DNA of 64,000 bases from a virus. This document shows positions 1 through 46,720 of the stretch, in pieces; the stretch's first letter is position 1, and each line of letters begins with the position of its first letter. Both the position numbers and the translations under genes were made by a program. Under the pieces are notes generated by a model. The model saw only the letters and a list, made by a program, of their open reading frames with translations. It was not told the DNA's origin and ran no database searches. Where the stretch lies: positions 118,739-182,738 of IMG/VR virus record IMGVR_UViG_3300035070_003385; one strand, 5' to 3'.

Positions 1-122
1 TGACTGGCGAAAAAGATGAATTAGAAGGAACCCTTGTAGGAACCGATTCAGAAACAGGGCGCGCAAAAATAAGAACAGGGGACGGTAAATTGTATATCGT
101 AAAACACGATGAAATCATTTAA
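1..122 (+). CDS. 3' end of a hypothetical protein (partial, starts before the window)
   Basis: Open frame from base 3 (TGEKDELEGTLVGTDSETGRAKIRTGDGKLYIVKHDEII) to TAA at 120-122, overlapping the next start. Confidence 0.5.
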   Translation, partial: TGEKDELEGTLVGTDSETGRAKIRTGDGKLYIVKHDEII

Positions 123-414
123 ACAACATATAAAAAATACTCCAAATTTAAAAGAGCAACATTCAAACTGTGGTACTCAACAGTGTTGTGGTAAATGCAG
201 CACTGCAGTTACAGAAGGCTCAGAAACTTGGGAAGCTGGTTATAAGCGTAGAGTAGTCAAAACTACAAAACCAGAGCACAAAGAAAAAGGTATGAATTGG
301 AGAATTAAAGGTAAAGACCGTCCTGAAATTTCCATTAAATTGTATAAAGAAAAACCTTCCCAGGAAGAATTCAACAAACAAATGAAACGTGTTGCAGGAC
401 ACGAGTTCGGATGA
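109..414 (+). CDS. Hypothetical protein, putative internal head protein
   Basis: N-terminus MKSFKQHI resembles the T4 capsid-targeting sequence; Cys-rich motif HSNCGTQQCCGKC. Confidence 0.6.
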   Translation: MKSFKQHIKNTPNLKEQHSNCGTQQCCGKCSTAVTEGSETWEAGYKRRVVKTTKPEHKEKGMNWRIKGKDRPEISIKLYKEKPSQEEFNKQMKRVAGHEFG

Positions 415-977
415 AAAGATTTAAGCAATACATATCAGAAGAAACAGAAACACTTAATGAAAGCGCACTTAAAGCTTTACGGGTTGCTACTAAAGCCCAT
501 TCAGGACAGACACGTAAAAGCGGTGGTAAATATATTGAGCATCCAAAAGAAGTTGCTCGGTTCGTACAAAAGTTTAAAAAATCAAACAATCTTTCGGCGT
601 TAGTACAGGCGGCTTATCTACACGATACTATTGAAGATACTGATACAACATATGATGATTTGGTTAAACAGTTTGGTGCTCTTATAGCTGATATGGTTCA
701 GGAATTAACAACTGATAAAGCTGCATCTGATGCAATTGGTAAAGGTGAATATATTGCCAATAAGATGGCTAAAATGTCAAGTTGGTCATTAGTTATTAAA
801 CTCGCAGATAGATTAGCAAACGTACAAGACATTGATACACGGCCTGCAGATTTTCAAAAGAAATATGCTGCACAGACTGCGCTTGCTATTAAACGTCTTC
901 GTAGTGATAGATATTTAAGTAAAACACATAATAAAATCATATCAGCTATTGAGAAAAAAATTAAAGAATATGTATAG
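411..977 (+). CDS. RelA/SpoT-type HD hydrolase (small alarmone hydrolase/Mesh1-like) with capsid-targeting-like N-terminus
   Basis: Motifs AHSGQTRKSGGKYIEHP, AAYLHDTIEDT, VQELT and IKLADRLAN are typical of (p)ppGpp hydrolase domains; N-terminus MKRFKQYISE. Confidence 0.85.
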   Translation: MKRFKQYISEETETLNESALKALRVATKAHSGQTRKSGGKYIEHPKEVARFVQKFKKSNNLSALVQAAYLHDTIEDTDTTYDDLVKQFGALIADMVQELTTDKAASDAIGKGEYIANKMAKMSSWSLVIKLADRLANVQDIDTRPADFQKKYAAQTALAIKRLRSDRYLSKTHNKIISAIEKKIKEYV

Positions 978-1263
978 TTTCAAACAATATATTTCCGAAG
1001 GTATCATGGTTAAACTGATTCGTGGTAAAGGCCAGGATACTTTAAAAATGAGAGACACTAAAGAAAAAAGTTGGGTTGAATTACGAGGTAAACCTAATTT
1101 TGAAACTAAATATGATAAAAGAGATCCATTACATAAAGCAATTACAGCATTAGGTAAATCGGCAAATATATCTGATTTTATGAACGGTGATGAAGTCAGT
1201 ATTAATCCAAACCATCCTGACGGTAAAAAGGCATTGGCAGCAATGAAGAAGTTAATGAAATGA
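970..1263 (+). CDS. Hypothetical protein, putative internal head protein
   Basis: Internal ATG at 970 of ORF 949-1263 gives MYSFKQYISE and overlaps the upstream stop. Confidence 0.6.
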   Translation: MYSFKQYISEGIMVKLIRGKGQDTLKMRDTKEKSWVELRGKPNFETKYDKRDPLHKAITALGKSANISDFMNGDEVSINPNHPDGKKALAAMKKLMK

Positions 1264-1568
1264 AAAATTTTAAAAAATTCTTAGAAGAAAAAGATCCTCG
1301 ATTGGCGAAGGCTGGAGTGGATGGTTATAATAAACCAAAAAGAACTCCTAGTCATCCTACTAAAAGTCATATTGTCGTTGCTAAAGACGGTAATAAAATT
1401 AAAACTATTAGATTTGGTGAGCAAGGCGCATCCACTGCCGGTGATCCAAAAAAAGGTGAATCTGATAGAATGAAGGCTAAGAGAAAATCGTTTAAAGCAC
1501 GCCATGCTAAAAATATCGCTAAAGGTAAAATGTCTGGGGCATATTGGGCAGATAAAGAAAAGTGGTAA
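1260..1568 (+). CDS. Basic hypothetical protein, putative internal head protein
   Basis: MKNFKKFLEE N-terminus; Lys-rich; IRFGEQG motif; ATGA overlap with the previous gene. Confidence 0.65.
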   Translation: MKNFKKFLEEKDPRLAKAGVDGYNKPKRTPSHPTKSHIVVAKDGNKIKTIRFGEQGASTAGDPKKGESDRMKAKRKSFKARHAKNIAKGKMSGAYWADKEKW

Positions 1569-1618: not shown

Positions 1619-1837
1619 ATGAAAAGTTTTAAGCAATTTACACTTAATGAAAAAGTCAAGGTTGAATGCCCTAAATGTGATGGTGCTGGCTGTGATCATT
1701 GTGACGGTAAAGGTTATCACGCCGAACCTGAGCTTAACGAGTTATCCGCCGAAGAAAAAAAACTTGTTAATCAAATGTACGATAAAAAGGGTAACTTAAC
1801 ACCACTTGGTAAAAAAGTTATGAACTATAATAAATAA
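1619..1837 (+). CDS. Small zinc-finger protein, putative internal head protein
   Basis: MKSFKQFTLNE N-terminus; CPKCDGAGCDHCDGKG resembles DnaJ-type CxxCxGxG repeats; GATAAATA upstream. Confidence 0.6.
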   Translation: MKSFKQFTLNEKVKVECPKCDGAGCDHCDGKGYHAEPELNELSAEEKKLVNQMYDKKGNLTPLGKKVMNYNK

Positions 1838-2574: not shown

Positions 2575-3636
2575 GTGGTAGTAGATCTATTCTTAGTTTA
2601 TCAATTTATCCGTAGATTAGCTACGCCATTTGAAAAGTGGCCTGCTTACGAAGCAGGGGTTATAGATAAAAAAGGAAATATACTCAAAGGAAAAAACCAA
2701 AGAAATTTAAAATCTGAAAAAGATTCATTTGGTATTTTTGATTTGATGATATTAAAAATCAAAAAGCTTTTAGCTAAACTACCAGGCGGATCATCAAATT
2801 TTGCTTCCTATGCCGCAGCGCTGTTTCTCATAAAAGAATGGAAACATTTTACTAATGATAGCATGCTTAATGAATCTATTTCTGAAGAGAATATTGACCA
2901 GTCACTGGATTTGTTTTTTAGTAGATATAATCATTATAACACACTTTCAGAAAATGTCAATAGTTTTTTAGATGAAAAACTTAAAAAATCAGATGATATG
3001 GGTACATGGATTAAAGATTTTTATGACTCAGATGCTCCTCAATTCAAAGGTAAATCAAAAGCAAAACGCCGGCAAATGGCCGTTGCTGCAAAACTTGACG
3101 CTATGGATGAAGCACGAAAACTACAACCTCCTAAATGGAAAAAGGCTGGACCCAATGGAGAAAAAGAAATTACTTTTCCGACTGGCCGTCGCTTTAAGAT
3201 AGAAAAACAATATGATGAAAATATTCGTCATAAGGGTGAGTGGAAAGTAATGGAATGGGATCCTCGCTCTCGTGATTGGGAATGGCATGAAACATTTAGT
3301 CCACAATGGTATGCGAAAGAAAAAGTAATGGAACTAGGTAAATATGATTCCAAAGGTAAAAAAGTTACTGAGTCAGCAATTAATATGCGTACTTTAAAAC
3401 TTATCAATAAAATTAAAAAGTCCGGTGTTGTAAAATCCGGTTCTATGTCAAAAAATGTAAACACAAAACCGACGATGAAAGAAGAACCAACAAATAGCGT
3501 TGGATCTGGCGCTGTTGCTGGTTTAGGCGTTGGTCCACAGGGAGAGCCAGGATTGACTCCTGCTCAAATGAAAAAGTATAAAAAGAAAAACAAAGGTCCA
3601 AAAAGACTAAGGGATATTATAGGAGCGAATACATGA
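2575..3636 (+). CDS. Conserved T4-like protein with appended basic modules, probable head protein
   Basis: N-terminal VDLFLVYQFIRRLATPFEKWPAY domain followed by Lys-rich modules bounded by LDE/MDE/VTE. Confidence 0.6.
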   Translation: MVVDLFLVYQFIRRLATPFEKWPAYEAGVIDKKGNILKGKNQRNLKSEKDSFGIFDLMILKIKKLLAKLPGGSSNFASYAAALFLIKEWKHFTNDSMLNESISEENIDQSLDLFFSRYNHYNTLSENVNSFLDEKLKKSDDMGTWIKDFYDSDAPQFKGKSKAKRRQMAVAAKLDAMDEARKLQPPKWKKAGPNGEKEITFPTGRRFKIEKQYDENIRHKGEWKVMEWDPRSRDWEWHETFSPQWYAKEKVMELGKYDSKGKKVTESAINMRTLKLINKIKKSGVVKSGSMSKNVNTKPTMKEEPTNSVGSGAVAGLGVGPQGEPGLTPAQMKKYKKKNKGPKRLRDIIGANT

Positions 3637-4493
3637 TTACTCTTGAACAATTTAGCGCAATGATACCAAGAAATAAAGAACCTGAAGCCTGGTATGAAAA
3701 TGTTGTTGACATGTTTAAAAAATATGATATAATAACACCATTACGTATTGCTGGTTTTATGGCACAATGTGGTCATGAATCAGCTGACTTTACTGCACTC
3801 GAAGAAAATTTAAATTATAGCGAAAAAGCTTTGAATGGTGTATTTGGTAGGTATTTTGGAAAAGATAAAAGAAACGCAGCTGATTATGCTCGTAAACCTG
3901 AAAAGATTGCTAACTATGTGTACCAAGATGAATTCCGTTCTAAACGCGGGGCAATGGGTAATACAGAAGACGGTGATGGTTGGAGATTCCGCGGTAGAGG
4001 AATTAAACAGTTAACCGGGCGCAACAACTATACTGCATTTGGCAAATCTGTTGGAATGTCAGCAGAAGAAGCGGCTGAATACGTAGCAACGAAAAAGGGT
4101 GCTCTTGAGTCAGCTTGCTGGTTTTGGGCCACAAACAAAATTGATAGATATGCAGACAATGACGATATTGTAGGAATGACAAAACGTATTAACGGCGGTA
4201 CAATTGGTTTAGACGACCGTAAATCACGATATGCAAGGGCAAAAAGTATTTTAGGTGGTGAAAGTATTCCAACGCCAAAGAAAACTTCAAGCAGCTCCTC
4301 GTCTAATAAAAGAACACTGCGCAAAGGCATGAAAGGCGACGATGTTGCTAAAATGCAAAAAGCTCTCGGTGTTACTGCAGACGGCGATTTTGGGTTTGGT
4401 ACTTTGGGTGTAGTAAAAAAATGGCAGCGATCAAACGGATTAACTCCAGACGGTATAGTTGGTCCAAAGACTCAAGCAAAAATGTTTAGATGA
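3633..4493 (+). CDS. Endolysin: glycoside hydrolase family 19 with C-terminal peptidoglycan-binding domain
   Basis: AGFMAQCGHES, FRGRGIKQLTGRNNY and INGGTIGLDDR motifs; C-terminal LQKAL..ADGDFG..T/PDGIVGPKT PG-binding pattern. Confidence 0.9.
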   Translation: MITLEQFSAMIPRNKEPEAWYENVVDMFKKYDIITPLRIAGFMAQCGHESADFTALEENLNYSEKALNGVFGRYFGKDKRNAADYARKPEKIANYVYQDEFRSKRGAMGNTEDGDGWRFRGRGIKQLTGRNNYTAFGKSVGMSAEEAAEYVATKKGALESACWFWATNKIDRYADNDDIVGMTKRINGGTIGLDDRKSRYARAKSILGGESIPTPKKTSSSSSSNKRTLRKGMKGDDVAKMQKALGVTADGDFGFGTLGVVKKWQRSNGLTPDGIVGPKTQAKMFR

Positions 4494-18747: not shown

Positions 18748-18990
18748 ATGCCATATACAGTTGAACTCGACATTTCTCACGAAGCTGACCATTCAGAAGT
18801 TGTAGAATTTGCATCTAATTTGGATTGTGCAGCTAAACTTTTAATGGAAAATGGCCCAGCAGGCGGTAACCCTCTTTATGAATTCTCATCTGATAACTAT
18901 AATAAGATTCGAGAATTACTTGTTGAACTCTTTGGCCAAGGCCACGGTTTCGATGAAGAAGAACTTAAAACTATGATCGTAGAGGTATAA
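18748..18990 (+). CDS. Hypothetical protein
   Basis: SD AAGGA; GPAGGNP motif. Confidence 0.6.
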   Translation: MPYTVELDISHEADHSEVVEFASNLDCAAKLLMENGPAGGNPLYEFSSDNYNKIRELLVELFGQGHGFDEEELKTMIVEV

Positions 18991-18993
18991 ATT

Positions 18994-19182
18994 ATGATTG
19001 ATTATATTGAATTTGCAAAACGTCTTCGCGGCTTGGCAAGACGTGCTGATAATTTTGGAAAAAACCGTAAAGACGTTCTTTGGGAAATTATTGCAATTGC
19101 TGAAGATTACGAACAAAAAGCAAATCGTATTGAAATGGAAATGATTATCCAAGCTCAGCGCGACGCAGTAGAGGCATCTTAA
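18994..19182 (+). CDS. Hypothetical protein
   Basis: Operon ORF, helical. Confidence 0.5.
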   Translation: MIDYIEFAKRLRGLARRADNFGKNRKDVLWEIIAIAEDYEQKANRIEMEMIIQAQRDAVEAS

Positions 19183-41705: not shown

Positions 41706-43028
41706 TTAGAACAAGTTGCTTACGCGAACTCTGCGGTAGTAAACGTTGCTATTATCTGTAAGAGCACCTTCGCTACGTGATCCGCCATGTGCAAATGGGT
41801 TAGCAACCATGCCGTAACGAGTTTTGAACCCGATTTTTGGCTGGAAGCTGTTTTCACCAACTGCGCGGTACATTTGCAATGGTACATATGGGCAATAGAA
41901 GAGACCTGCGTCGAATGCAGAAGAACCTTTATAACCTACAACCATATAGTTGCTACCTGCATATGGATCGATATATACTCTATAACGACCGTTCAAGATA
42001 CCTGCGAATGTATTGCCTGTATCATCAACGTTAAGTGCGTTGCTGTTAAGAGCTGGAGTATAATCAAGAACACCAGACATCTGAAGTGCCGATGCAACAT
42101 CGGAAGAACAGATAACGATGTTACCTTTACCGCGACGAGTTGCTTTTGCAATCGCGTTGGCTTCGATTTCAACTTGGAACATCAATCCTTTGAATTTCTC
42201 AACTGACCAACGGCCGTTTGCGTCAACATCAAGATCGAATACACCGGCTGATGCAGTTGCCGCAGCACCTGTTACAGCAGTGTTATAGATTGTACGAACA
42301 ACTTCACGGTTGATTTCCGCAAGGATTTCAGACTGAAGAATGTTTGCGAGTTCTGTTTCTGCATCGAGACCGTGAACAGCGCGAAGATCCTGAGCAAGCT
42401 CAGTTGTGTATTCTGCTTTCAACGCTCTGCTTTTCGCAGCAACAGTTACTTTTTCAATAGCAAGTGCCATTTCTGCGAAGTTTGTTCCGTTACCGTCGCC
42501 AAGAGCTTCAGCATCGCCAGTTGCAAGACCTGTACCAGCTGGTGCTGTTGCGCCTGCACCAGTTGCAGCAGGACCGTGTGTACCAGTACCTGAGAAATCT
42601 GTGTCAGCTTCGTTATAGAAAGCTTCCTGTGCAGTGTTACCTGACATTGCATTCAAGTTAGAACGCATTGCAAAGATAAGACCTGTTGGACCTGTCATTG
42701 GCTGTACACCAGCAATGTCATATGCCATCAAGTTTGGCATAGAACGGCGAACCAAGCTGATTAGAACTGGGTCATAACCTGCTGTTGGAGTTGCAGCACC
42801 GGAACCAAATCCGCCAGTTCCAGCTGCGTTTGTTGGGGCTTCTTGTAAAAGCGAAGTCATATTAATTGACTGATCGCCACTTTCTACAAGTGCCTTTTCT
42901 GTGTTTTCGAGAAGAGTAGCAGTTACTGCTTTTCTGTGCTCGTCTTTGATTGCTGCGAAAGATGAGTGCTCGAGAAGAGGTCCCCACTTTTCAACTAATG
43001 TTCTGCTAGATTGACTCATTTTTGTCAC
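41706..43028 (-). CDS. gp23: Major capsid protein (likely start 43019)
   Basis: KWGPLLE, GVQPMTGPTGLIFAMR, SRALKAEYT, FYCPYVPL, FQPKIGFKTRYG. Confidence 0.97.
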   Translation of the reverse strand: MTKMSQSSRTLVEKWGPLLEHSSFAAIKDEHRKAVTATLLENTEKALVESGDQSINMTSLLQEAPTNAAGTGGFGSGAATPTAGYDPVLISLVRRSMPNLMAYDIAGVQPMTGPTGLIFAMRSNLNAMSGNTAQEAFYNEADTDFSGTGTHGPAATGAGATAPAGTGLATGDAEALGDGNGTNFAEMALAIEKVTVAAKSRALKAEYTTELAQDLRAVHGLDAETELANILQSEILAEINREVVRTIYNTAVTGAAATASAGVFDLDVDANGRWSVEKFKGLMFQVEIEANAIAKATRRGKGNIVICSSDVASALQMSGVLDYTPALNSNALNVDDTGNTFAGILNGRYRVYIDPYAGSNYMVVGYKGSSAFDAGLFYCPYVPLQMYRAVGENSFQPKIGFKTRYGMVANPFAHGGSRSEGALTDNSNVYYRRVRVSNLF

Positions 43029-43078: not shown

Positions 43079-44044
43079 TCACTTTTGTTTACTATTGATG
43101 GCTTCAACGATTGCAGAAACCGAAGAATATTGAGAAACTGGTTTTTTCGTTTCAGTTTCTTCAGTAAGAACTTCGTCTTCTGTTTCTTCGCTTATTACCT
43201 GTGCCTTTTTAGTTTTAAAGAACGATTCCTTAAGGGTACCAAGGTCTGTCTCATATGCTTGAATGTCGTCATAATCAAGCTTTTCTGACAAAGATTTTAA
43301 TCTTTCTTTCTGAGAGACAGTAAGTCCTTCTGAAATATCATCAAAAACTTTTTCAGCTTTGAGACTGGCTATTTCCTTTGCAAGGGAAATATTTTCGTTG
43401 ATGGTTTCGTTTGTTTGTTTTTGAAGTTCATCAACTTGTTCTTCTAACCCAGCAACCACATCAACCGTTTCTTCATCAATATCGATGTTGTGACTGGAGA
43501 AAATATCTCTTAGGCCGTCCATTAATGATTCTGCCATTTCTACTTTAATGCCAGACTCTACAGCCACTTTATTTTCTTCCATCCACTGTTCAACAACATA
43601 GTCGAGATACGAGTCTAGGTTTTCGGTAATTTCTTCTATAGCTTCATTAACAGTTTCAACTAGCTTGTTATCAAACTCTTCTTCAAGAGCTGTAACAGCT
43701 TCGTTTACTTTTGTGTTTGTTGCTTCTCTGACAGCTGTTTCAAAAACTAATGATACTTTAGATTTGAATTTTTCAGAAAGATCTGTACCTTCAAACATTG
43801 AAGCAATAGACTCTTCAACAGATACAACTTCTTCTACAACATCTGTAGTTTCTACGACTTCTTCTGCATCAACGTCGTCAGCTTCTTCTGACATAGGTGG
43901 CGTTTCTACAGTATCCGCTTTAGGATCTACTTTCTTTTTAACATCAGCTTTTTTCTTTTTAATTTCGCCGCCTGCCGCTACCGTTGGTTCTGGAACCTCG
44001 GAAACGCCGTCGTCAGCAACGAATTTTTCTTCTAATTCTGACAT
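43079..44044 (-). CDS. gp22: Prohead core scaffolding protein
   Basis: Acidic coiled coil; LDSYLDYVVEQWMEEN; position between gp21 and gp23. Confidence 0.92.
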   Translation of the reverse strand: MSELEEKFVADDGVSEVPEPTVAAGGEIKKKKADVKKKVDPKADTVETPPMSEEADDVDAEEVVETTDVVEEVVSVEESIASMFEGTDLSEKFKSKVSLVFETAVREATNTKVNEAVTALEEEFDNKLVETVNEAIEEITENLDSYLDYVVEQWMEENKVAVESGIKVEMAESLMDGLRDIFSSHNIDIDEETVDVVAGLEEQVDELQKQTNETINENISLAKEIASLKAEKVFDDISEGLTVSQKERLKSLSEKLDYDDIQAYETDLGTLKESFFKTKKAQVISEETEDEVLTEETETKKPVSQYSSVSAIVEAINSKQK

Positions 44045-44099: not shown

Positions 44100-44786
44100 T
44101 TAATTTTTCAGAGAAGTAAGGAATTTCTCAAAGAGCTTTGCCGCGTGTGATTCGTCAATTACTCTAACAGTTTTCTTATATTCCCTTTTCACTTCTTGAA
44201 CTATCTCCTCAACAACCTGTTGAACAGCGTGTTGACGCCAAGTTCCAGCGGCAATATCATAATAATATTCCGTGTTTTCCATTATGCCATTTACAAAACA
44301 ATCAGGCCCAGATGGATCTGTCACAATATCAACAGTTGCTAAATGAAAGTCGTCTTGCACTTCCATTACGCCGTCTTTAGTAGGTTTCACGGAACCTAGA
44401 CCGCGAGTGGAAACGCCAACCCTTACGCCTTCGTCTACGAAAGTTTTGACAATTTCGCCCATTGGAGTTGACAAAATTTTTGCCTTTCCAATAAAGTTTG
44501 ATCCTTCTTGCTTCATTTCAGTAATAAGATGTGAAACTCTATCACCGTTAATTTGCGGACCGTCAGGATGTCCCAATTCGCCAAGAGCTCTTTTTGTCTC
44601 AATAAACGTTTTTTGGTACCTATTCATTTCTTTTTCAAGAATGGTAGAAGGATATATGCGACCGTTACGATTTTTCATATCGCCTTGCATGAAGATACCT
44701 TCAATGAAGTAATTCTTCTTACCGTTTTCAGTTGCTTCTGTGACAACCTCGCAATCTTCGTTGAATACTTCAGTAATTAACTTCAT
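44100..44786 (-). CDS. gp21: Prohead protease
   Basis: IEGIFMQ..NRNGRIY, ALGELGHP, GVSTRGLGS, DIVTDPS. Confidence 0.95.
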   Translation of the reverse strand: MKLITEVFNEDCEVVTEATENGKKNYFIEGIFMQGDMKNRNGRIYPSTILEKEMNRYQKTFIETKRALGELGHPDGPQINGDRVSHLITEMKQEGSNFIGKAKILSTPMGEIVKTFVDEGVRVGVSTRGLGSVKPTKDGVMEVQDDFHLATVDIVTDPSGPDCFVNGIMENTEYYYDIAAGTWRQHAVQQVVEEIVQEVKREYKKTVRVIDESHAAKLFEKFLTSLKN

Positions 44787-44819: not shown

Positions 44820-45078
44820 CTTTAGCATCGTAATAGTTTTTAGATAATTCGCCACGCTCAATAGTTTCTCCAGCTTTTCTAACTTTAACATACGTTCTTT
44901 GTACGTTTCCAAGAGGAGTTGTGAATGTTCGAACACCAGCTGCTGTAGTTCCATTCGCATCTAAATATGTATCCGCGGCAGAGGCGGCATTATCATATTC
45001 CCATATATTATTTGATCCTGGAACTACTACCCAAGCCATATTACATTGCTTCTCTTGCAAAACCAAGAATTTCTTCAA
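44815..45078 (-). CDS. Hypothetical head-associated protein (likely start about 45039)
   Basis: In the head operon between the core protein and gp21. Confidence 0.55.
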   Translation of the reverse strand: MKKFLVLQEKQCNMAWVVVPGSNNIWEYDNAASAADTYLDANGTTAAGVRTFTTPLGNVQRTYVKVRKAGETIERGELSKNYYDAKV

Positions 45079-46720
45079 ACCCTACTTTGTCTGCCATTGC
45101 AGTATTTTGCATTTTTTTACGGTTTGCGGAAGAAAGATTTTTGAACATTTGGTTTAAAAGATCGGTATCTTGCTTTTTTAAAATAACAGAAGAACCGTCC
45201 TTAAGTTTTACCATACCAGTTTTAAATTTTTCGTTCAATTCCTCATCAATCTCAGTTTCTTCTTTTTTATCCCAAGGAGCTTTTTTTAAGGAAACTTCAC
45301 CTTTCGGTTTAACCTTCATACCTTGAAGAGCTCTTGTAATTGTTTTTTGTGAAATAGTTTTCTTTGCTTCGTCTAGTTCAACTTCTTCACGCATTTTTTT
45401 CTGAACCGCTTTGTATTCTTTACGGCGGTCAGAGTCTTTATCCATTAAAGAAAGAATTTTTTCACGTGGCTCTGTGTCTAAGTCATCAACAAACTTCTTC
45501 AGTTGTGCTGTTTGACCTTTCTTCATCATCATAGCAGCTTTTATAAAGTCCATCTTATCAATGCCGCCATATTTACGGGCATAATCTTCAAGTTCTTTTG
45601 CAACACGTGACATTGTAGCTTCATCAAGATTTGATTCTCTTATTGAGGCTTTGTATAATTTTATTGCTTCTTTATACTTTGGATTCTTTATCATTCGCTT
45701 TGACTCAGCATCATCTGGATTTTGATGAATCATACGTACCGTTGGTTCGTCCAACTTATGAGTTTTCATATGCTTTTTATATGCATCGAACTTTTTAGAA
45801 TCTACTGCTGGGCCAAATCTGTTTCTCATCGGCGTGGTTATTTCATTGACAGATTCAGCAAGCATCCAACCTTTTGCAAGATATTCTTTTTGTTTAGTCT
45901 TATCAATAACAATAGTTTTGCCGGCGTTATCTACAACCATAACTTCGGTTTTAGGATTTTTTAACTGACGAGCTTCTTCAAGTTCAGCTTCTTCACCCAT
46001 CGCCATTACTTCAGCTGTTGCGTACGAGTACAGAGTTTGGATTTCCTTAGCAACGCCCGCCAATTTGTTTTGGAACCATTCTTCTGGATCCTGTGTTGAT
46101 TGGAGGTAACGCGAAATACCAGATATGTTATGTGACATAGAGCGTAAAGAATTCATCATCATTGGAATTTCCTCCCACGCATTTTCGTCAAGTTCTTCAC
46201 GCATGCTAGCTAAAGATTTTTGAGTAGAAGTCATTGTGCGTACTGGTTTTTTCCGGCCGGTCTTCGTACGGCCCATAGCTGCATTATGCGCTGCATCTTT
46301 TGCACGCTGAATCTTAATAAAGTCGCCAGACATCTTTGGCGCGCCTTTACGACGTGGAGCCTCGTCCAGGTCAGCTTCTTTCATATTTTTAGAAATTGCT
46401 TGGCGGCGCTTATGGAGATATTCGTCTGATGAGTCGATATCGCCATCGTTGTCAATGTCTTTGTCTTTACGGTCGTCAAATTTCTTTTTAACGGCTTTTG
46501 GATTGACTTTATCTAGCGCTTCATAAACTGCAGCGTCTTCTCCTGGGGCTAAATCTGCTCTACGTTTAACTTTGGCCGTGCCTGGTATTTCGCCAGTAAA
46601 CTGATGGTCCAAAGCAACAGGATGGCCAACCATAGTTACAATATGTTTATCCTTAAACGCCTTTTCGTCGCCTGCTTTTGGCTGTGCCACTTCGGCTATT
46701 AAATTTTTAAAGGTTTTCAT
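45041..46720 (-). CDS. Prohead core / internal head polyprotein at the gp67-gp68 position
   Basis: MKTFKNLIAE N-terminus, repeated (L/I)xE junctions, synteny between gp20 and gp21. Confidence 0.7.
   Translation of the reverse strand: MKTFKNLIAEVAQPKAGDEKAFKDKHIVTMVGHPVALDHQFTGEIPGTAKVKRRADLAPGEDAAVYEALDKVNPKAVKKKFDDRKDKDIDNDGDIDSSDEYLHKRRQAISKNMKEADLDEAPRRKGAPKMSGDFIKIQRAKDAAHNAAMGRTKTGRKKPVRTMTSTQKSLASMREELDENAWEEIPMMMNSLRSMSHNISGISRYLQSTQDPEEWFQNKLAGVAKEIQTLYSYATAEVMAMGEEAELEEARQLKNPKTEVMVVDNAGKTIVIDKTKQKEYLAKGWMLAESVNEITTPMRNRFGPAVDSKKFDAYKKHMKTHKLDEPTVRMIHQNPDDAESKRMIKNPKYKEAIKLYKASIRESNLDEATMSRVAKELEDYARKYGGIDKMDFIKAAMMMKKGQTAQLKKFVDDLDTEPREKILSLMDKDSDRRKEYKAVQKKMREEVELDEAKKTISQKTITRALQGMKVKPKGEVSLKKAPWDKKEETEIDEELNEKFKTGMVKLKDGSSVILKKQDTDLLNQMFKNLSSANRKKMQNTAMADKVGFEEILGFAREAM

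Follow-up and report, generated by a model that had tools for sequence, protein, structure and literature searches.

A small alarmone hydrolase with a T4-type capsid-targeting leader in a marine relative of phage T4, a candidate for packaging in the phage head

The gene considered here lies at positions 411..977 (+ strand) of a 64 kb stretch of viral DNA, hereafter the window, which is the final part of the IMG/VR record IMGVR_UViG_3300035070_003385 (182,738 bp, 36% G+C, estimated to be 91% complete). Its open reading frame (ORF), the ATG start of which overlaps the stop of the preceding gene, encodes 188 amino acids plus a stop, the precursor of a small alarmone hydrolase (SAH) that begins with a short leader resembling the capsid targeting sequence that T4 internal proteins (IPs) carry. 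Three parts of the precursor can be distinguished. The leader core, residues 1-10 (411..440, +; MKRFKQYISE), is a capsid-targeting-like decapeptide with a terminal I-x-E motif. It is followed by an acidic linker with a second candidate cleavage site, residues 11-17 (441..461, +; ETETLNE, in which L-N-E stands before S18), and by the predicted mature HD-domain hydrolase, residues 18-188 (462..974, +). The gene content of the window is that of a T4-like myovirus, with a gp23-type capsid protein, gp22 scaffold, gp21 protease, portal, sheath and large terminase, arranged as in T4. For the major capsid protein no record in the phage collection exceeds 65% identity, and its nearest matches there come from the Sinorhizobium phiM12-group phages, Melnitz and cyanophages; the phage is a distant marine relative of T4.

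The full set of RelA/SpoT/Mesh1 HD hydrolase motifs had been read in this protein in a first-pass annotation of the sequence, which also proposed a profile search for HD_4/RelA_SpoT as a check, and both the motifs and the profile match are found. Pfam HD_4 (PF13328) covers residues 22-156 with an E value of 2.4e-16, above the cut-off, and is the sole domain in the 188 amino acids, with no synthetase domain; other profile matches are to Pfam HD (5.4e-06) and to the metal-dependent phosphohydrolase family phrog_990 (5.8e-30). It is also the only HD_4 match in the whole genome. The motifs AH30-x-G-Q33-x-R35...Y41-x-x-H44-P45, L-H71-D72-x-x-E75-D76-T and K-L-A-D133-R-L-x-N137 are all present, and residues H30, Q33, R35, Y41, H44, P45, H71, D72, E75, D76, D133 and N137 do not vary across 74 aligned homologs, with H44, H71, D72, D133, E75, D76, R35 and N137 aligning with MESH1. 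Among solved structures the best match by sequence is human MESH1 (3nr1, E 1.4e-16), followed by Rel/SpoT hydrolase domains. An AlphaFold2 model based on the 74 homologs (predicted local distance difference test score, pLDDT, 90; predicted template modelling score, pTM, 0.85) has MESH1, Pseudomonas aeruginosa SAH and C. glutamicum RelH as its top Foldseek matches, with a probability of 1.00 and template modelling (TM) scores of 0.74-0.83, and superimposes on human MESH1 at TM 0.80/0.83. The HD_4 match, the MESH1 and Rel matches, the fold and the invariant motifs therefore identify the product by all features that can be tested in silico as an SAH of the RelA/SpoT/Mesh1 HD type with intact active-site motifs, and hydrolase activity is predicted for it.

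Residues 1-17, MKRFKQYISEETETLNE, form an extension outside the folded domain. In the model residues 1-14 have a pLDDT below 50 and the first element of the fold is a helix at residues 17-29, while the alignment of MESH1 and Rel hydrolase domains to the protein begins only at about residue 20. The closest leaderless phage SAHs, from Vibrio phage pv27 (47% identity, MYLVQKALDF) and BcepSaruman (44%, MKIILDAIAF), open directly at helix 1. The best homologs in a collection of 5.8 billion proteins (50-98% identity) nearly all start M-x-x-F-x-x-[YFH]. When those with a short extension are considered, the strict leader pattern is found in 73 of 105 and the loose pattern in 92, and every one of the 105 has an [LIVMF]-x-[ED] site ahead of the HD core. 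Among orthologs the decapeptide is separated from helix 1 by a linker of 0 to about 30 residues, and [LI]-x-E is retained immediately before the helix; in the window protein the candidate cleavage sites are I-S-E10 and L-N-E17. Natural in-frame fusions of the SAH also occur, one of 575 residues (L073:3224-4951) and one of 1,197 residues (L072:1820-5413). At both junctions of the SAH polyproteins [L]-x-E is retained (...ESLNE|NAL and ...VDLDE|SAL), as expected for cargo that is released by a protease.

The SAH is one of eight proteins of this genome with such a leader. In a scan of 1,703 Met-initiated frames a position matrix scored the eight true N-termini at 16.6-26.4 bits, that of the SAH being the highest at 26.4, whereas the best of the other frames reached 4.8. 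Immediately around the SAH gene and on the same strand are the genes of a 101-aa basic Cys-rich protein, w109 (109..414, +; MKSFKQHIKN...LKE), recognised by the leader matrix; a 97-aa basic protein, w970 (970..1263, +; MYSFKQYISE), belonging to family F4, in which 90% of members have the leader; a 102-aa basic protein, w1260 (1260..1568, +; MKNFKKFLEE), a member of phrog_7595; and a 72-aa protein with a CxxC...CxxC arrangement, w1619 (1619..1837, +; MKSFKQFTLNE), again recognised by the matrix. Two larger tagged genes, for a phrog_2496 protein and a DUF6267 protein, lie 15 kb upstream, and the remaining one encodes a 559-aa protein of the head module (45041..46720, -; MKTFKNLIAE), the orthologs of which keep the leader. 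The isoelectric point (pI) is at least 9.2 in seven of the eight, compared with 17% of 216 ORFs (median 5.6; binomial probability about 3e-5). The leader codons differ synonymously and the DNA upstream of the tagged genes is unrelated, from which it follows that the leader is conserved at the peptide level. These two observations also rule out repeated DNA or a common promoter or ribosome-binding site as the origin of the shared N-termini, and chance occurrence is ruled out by the matrix scan together with a reversed-genome control. Paralogy of the five neighbouring small genes was likewise considered and rejected, since their cargo parts form separate similarity families, except that w109 and w1260 cluster together, and since the tag is also present on enzymes that have leaderless homologs elsewhere.

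The capsid targeting sequence of T4 IPI, IPII and IPIII was described by Mullaney and Black (1996) and is reviewed in PMC9026906 and PMC3012670. The T4 N-termini as read from NC_000866 are MKTYQEFIAE|A for both IPII and IPIII, MKTFKEFTSTTTPVSTITE|A for IPI, which starts MKTFKEFTS and has its cut site at ITE19|A, and MKTFKEFIKE for gp61.1. Mutational mapping in T4 has assigned targeting to positions 4 and 7 and processing to positions 8 and 10 (PMC9026906), and at these positions the SAH has F4, Y7, I8 and E10 and T4 has Y/F4, F7, I8 and E10. When 1,580 T4 Met-initiated frames were scored with a matrix derived from the marine leaders only, the four highest were gp61.1, IPI, IPIII and IPII. Because IPII and IPIII share one leader, two independent leaders are counted here, and the chance of finding both in the top four is about 5e-6. 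If cut at E10 only, the SAH would be a protein of 178 aa, 19.9 kDa and pI 9.4, which resembles T4 IPIII* (20.4 kDa, pI 9.7). T4 gp61.1 (gene 61.1, 18966-19130; locus L180:267-431) is a 54-aa hypothetical protein with a marine-matrix score above those of IPI-III, and judged by its N-terminus it may be an unrecognised tagged protein of T4. We conclude that this genuine leader is a module under conservation as a peptide and is the equivalent of the tag in T4. The first-pass annotation had claimed an extra leader ahead of the HD fold and had called it T4-type and capsid-targeting. The former agrees with the disorder of residues 1-14 and their absence from MESH1 and the leaderless phage SAHs, and the latter with the match at mapped positions 4, 7, 8 and 10 and with the gp21-type protease encoded by the phage. 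Sharing of the N-terminus by cellular homologs was named there as an observation that would speak against the idea; neither MESH1 nor the leaderless phage SAHs share it, and among homologs from other T4-like phages of marine origin the leader persists to identities as low as about 50%.

The machinery that would recognise and process such a leader is encoded elsewhere in the window. The presumed processing enzyme is a gp21-type prohead protease of the Peptidase_S77 family (44100..44786, -; PF03420, E 4.7e-35; phrog_207 head maturation protease, 1.2e-74), and the presumed docking partner of the leader is a gp22-type scaffolding protein (43079..44044, -; phrog_237, 1.7e-73). The gp23-type major capsid protein (41706..43028, -; phrog_138, 6.8e-157) has an L-Q-E|A maturation site that aligns with the T4 gp23 site L-T-E65|A, and this alignment suggests that the L/I-x-E specificity of the gp21-type protease has probably been kept in this phage. 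The tagged 559-aa protein is encoded between the portal and protease genes, where it holds the place of the T4 prohead-core genes 67/68, and has a late promoter of its own. It also contains a DKDIDNDGDIDSSDEYLHKRR motif that recurs in many otherwise different phage proteins; a motif of this type is present, as GDIDNDGDKDSSDSYLLNRRK, in Syn9 gp185, which is annotated as a cytidyltransferase. The late promoter motif TATAAATA is located 25 nt upstream of the gp21-type protease gene. In both operons with leader-bearing genes it also precedes the first gene, by 31 nt, and similar spacings are seen before gp21, gp22 and gp23. No terminator was found on the + strand between TATAAATA and the SAH gene.

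Analysis of related phages was informative about the genetic setting of the SAH. In 80 related viral contigs it lies within an array of tagged genes whose content and order are variable, and conserved genes bound this array: at one end a cytidylyltransferase-like gene, at the other those for a head protein, DUF7207 and an endolysin. The leader is present in about 70-100% of the members of at least 16 cargo families and never in the flanking families. Among the cargoes are an HNH protein and a CCA-adding/poly(A)-polymerase-type nucleotidyltransferase. The latter is an enzyme of about 400 aa with the leader MKSFISHLNE (L081:4916-6121; also in L027, L029, L032 and L074-L078) and matches PolyA_pol (7e-18) and PolyA_pol_RNAbd (3.8e-16); it is encoded one or two genes away from the SAH, which hints at a tagged pair for the repair of tRNA 3' ends. 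In the SAH homologs P0027 and P0044 the Cys-rich segment of w109, CGTQQCCGKCSTAVTE, stands in one fused protein between leader and SAH domain (MLKFSKFIEHPNCGTPDCCMKCDTAVTE...LNE|SAL), which is evidence of module shuffling within the array. A further tagged family, F23 (L014:714-1622, L007:1069-1965), consists of His-rich proteins of about 300 aa in which STS and E-K-E motifs are visible. Its Pfam match to ADP-ribosyltransferase exoenzyme is below the cut-off (E 0.0019), a profile search of solved structures gave no match and the AlphaFold2 model was unusable (pLDDT 36). T4 Alt is an ADP-ribosyltransferase, and F23 is a candidate for its counterpart. The tag is also present in the cultured relatives Melnitz, Stenotrophomonas phage DLP6 and phage C48C1, and DUF6267 homologs of S-PM2 and P-SSM4 are without it. 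In the window the array is directly followed by an endolysin gene (3633-4493, +; GH19-like plus PG_binding_1), and likewise in T4 ipII and ipIII are found beside the lysozyme gene e.

The operon that contains the SAH is headed by a gene for a 762-aa cytidylyltransferase-like protein (genome positions 116572-118860, ending at window position 122; L001:15573-17858). In this phage the protein is without a canonical leader (MVEKKKNKK...DYIE|T), and its homologs in Melnitz, P-SSM2, P-SSM4, Syn9 and several metagenomic contigs have one. The cyanophage proteins belong to T4-GC 190, an experimentally determined virion structural protein that is flagged as 'Cytitidyltransferase' with proteomic data in File S1 of Sullivan et al. 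2010 (PMC3037559). Their N-termini, as read from the sequence records, are MKKFSAFLKE in P-SSM4, MKSFSQFLTE in P-SSM2 and MKKFSAFLSE in Syn9 (gp184). The particles of related phages therefore contain at least one enzyme so tagged, the flag being one for the GC 190 cluster and not for each phage.

Taken together, these observations make it rather probable that the SAH is a competent hydrolase with a T4-type capsid-targeting propeptide of 10-17 residues, which is packed into the head, cleaved, ejected and active on alarmones. Judged from its gene, the SAH is probably carried in the particle and enters the cell together with the DNA; that it is packaged, cleaved and ejected, on what it acts and how the phage benefits are all points that we infer. 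The late operon would be transcribed from the TATAAATA promoter 2.6 kb upstream, and the leader, mainly through F4 and Y7, would dock the precursor on the scaffolding core of the prohead. The gp21-type protease would then cut after I-S-E10 and/or L-N-E17, leaving a basic enzyme of about 19-20 kDa with the DNA, and this enzyme would leave the head with the genome and enter the next host. There, ahead of any phage gene expression, its substrate could be (p)ppGpp, (p)ppApp or pyrophosphorylated tRNA, which would lose its 3'-pyrophosphate. The outcome might be the lifting of stringent-response repression and/or the pre-emption of a toxSAS-type abortive defence, both of them putative targets. The first-pass annotation had proposed these purposes too, with CapRel alongside toxSAS, and had supposed that they would count in starved marine hosts. 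The stand-alone phage SAHs SSU5 PaSpo and PVP-SE1 PbcSpo neutralise, on co-expression, all toxSAS toxins tested, and the authors of that study proposed SAHs as a phage bypass of alarmone-based defence (PMC7229694).

Several points weigh against a packaged alarmone hydrolase. The virion evidence for GC 190 concerns a different cargo and does not extend to the SAH, and the combination of leader and SAH was found in no cultured phage of the phage collection. The SAH gene lies 2.6 kb from its TATAAATA motif, so that its transcription from there is presumptive, and genome-wide this motif is no more frequent than expected from composition and is telling only by its position before late genes. High pI is also seen in the leaderless SAH of BcepSaruman (9.3), and so is not peculiar to SAHs thought to be packaged. 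Finally, sequence alone cannot decide between the stringent response, (p)ppApp, pyrophosphorylated tRNA and NADPH as the target. MESH1 also acts on NADPH, and the SAH could be packaged but have a substrate other than an alarmone, as a MESH1-like NADPH phosphatase or an enzyme for another 3'-phosphorylated nucleotide or a defence signal, with a metabolic or anti-signalling benefit. We regard this as unlikely. The best sequence and fold matches are indeed to human MESH1, including its complexes with NADPH and with 3'-phosphoadenosine 5'-phosphosulfate, but the matches to bacterial SAHs and to the hydrolase domains of Rel are nearly as good, and the RelA/SpoT hydrolase motifs are invariant as a full set. 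Promiscuity of SAHs is reported (PMC9765508), whereas the phage SAHs tested to date counter toxSAS toxins.

The leader itself could instead be a clade-specific tag with some other role, in the context of initiation, in stability or degradation, or in a complex outside the capsid, with the SAH acting only in the cytoplasm, late, and in the producing cell. Even uncleaved, the precursor would be a complete enzyme in the cytoplasm late in infection. In the tagged genes a clear Shine-Dalgarno sequence is often missing, and the coding sequence opens with A/T-rich codons for Lys. The combination of synonymous codons with a strict F4, an aromatic residue at 7, I or L at 8 and E10 nevertheless speaks for selection on the peptide. 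Retrieval of the proven T4 tagged proteins by the marine matrix, the tag on a head-module gene, the basic character of the tagged proteins, like that of the T4 IPs, and the presence of a tagged cyanophage enzyme in virions are further points that make a non-capsid role quite improbable. Basic character and a size like that of the IPs would also suit a third explanation, in which packaging and processing take place but the SAH stays behind at ejection, or leaves the head unfolded and inactive, and serves mainly as basic ballast for DNA condensation like part of the IP mass of T4. The invariance of the catalytic residues across 50-98% identity argues for selection on enzyme activity, and enzymes and green fluorescent protein (GFP) fused to the T4 tag are delivered and are active after ejection (PMC9026906), so that ballast is in our view very improbable.

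If the SAH is a packaged hydrolase, it may be part of something larger. We suggest, tentatively and with somewhat more doubt than belief, that marine T4-like phages carry a kit of injected enzymes that can be read from sequence, with the SAH as one of the members under the strongest conservation. Pre-made SAH, in tens to hundreds of molecules, would enter with the DNA and collapse the (p)ppGpp/(p)ppApp pool of the host, or strip the pyrophosphate from tRNA, before phage transcription, and in sister phages the SAH would form a tRNA 3'-end rescue pair with the tagged CCA-adding enzyme against toxSAS toxins. In a marine cell of about 0.03 cubic micrometre one molecule corresponds to about 55 nM, and by this arithmetic an injected dose would reach micromolar concentration. 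Were this true, counter-defence and host reprogramming by phages could begin with pre-made enzymes and not with early genes, and the set of proteins injected by a large and ecologically dominant group of ocean phages would be predictable from a 10-residue tag. The long-standing question of what the IPs of T4-like phages do outside the E. coli phages would also become directly testable. The old idea that marine phages override the starvation signalling of their hosts would be revived, this time with a real alarmone hydrolase. A search for MazG (PF03819) across the whole record, which is 91% complete, gave no match; it is encoded by Melnitz and S-PM2, and Sullivan et al. 2010 (PMC3037559) count mazG among the core genes of cyanophages.

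Phage SAHs have been described before, and so has the T4 tag; for their combination we found no published description. Within a literature search in which subscription journals were incompletely covered, there was no report of a packaged alarmone hydrolase, nor of a capsid targeting sequence in cyanophages, pelagimyophages or marine T4-like phages. The closest parallel is with the T4 IPs, which, like this SAH, have an N-terminal propeptide of 10-19 residues of the form M-K-x-[FY]-x-x-[FY]-[IT]-x-E, with an [LI]-x-E end and a gp21-type protease to match. In both phages the tag is common to unrelated small basic proteins in variable arrays. The difference lies in the cargo, here a recognisable enzyme of the RelA/SpoT family and not a small inhibitor such as IPI, and in the evidence for packaging, which in the present case comes from the genes. 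GC 190 has the same type of leader, is homologous to the 762-aa gene at the head of the SAH operon and carries the virion proteomic flag, but it is a different enzyme from the SAH and its targeting sequence is not mentioned in PMC3037559. SSU5 PaSpo and PVP-SE1 PbcSpo are likewise single-domain HD hydrolases of the RelA/SpoT homolog superfamily from lytic phages; no capsid-targeting leader or virion presence has been reported for them, whereas this SAH carries the leader. The cellular enzymes, human and Drosophila MESH1 and P. aeruginosa SAH (3nr1, 5vxa, 6yvc), have its fold (TM 0.74-0.83) and, at 22-28% identity, its motifs for metal binding and catalysis as well, but are without the 17-residue N-terminal extension. 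That enzymes can travel in this way is established for T4, in which Alt, and staphylococcal nuclease, beta-galactosidase and GFP fused to the tag, are packaged by way of gp21-processed propeptides and delivered in active form (PMC9026906). The T4 tag fusions are artificial, whereas the fusion of tag and SAH is a natural one that is conserved over hundreds of metagenomic homologs.

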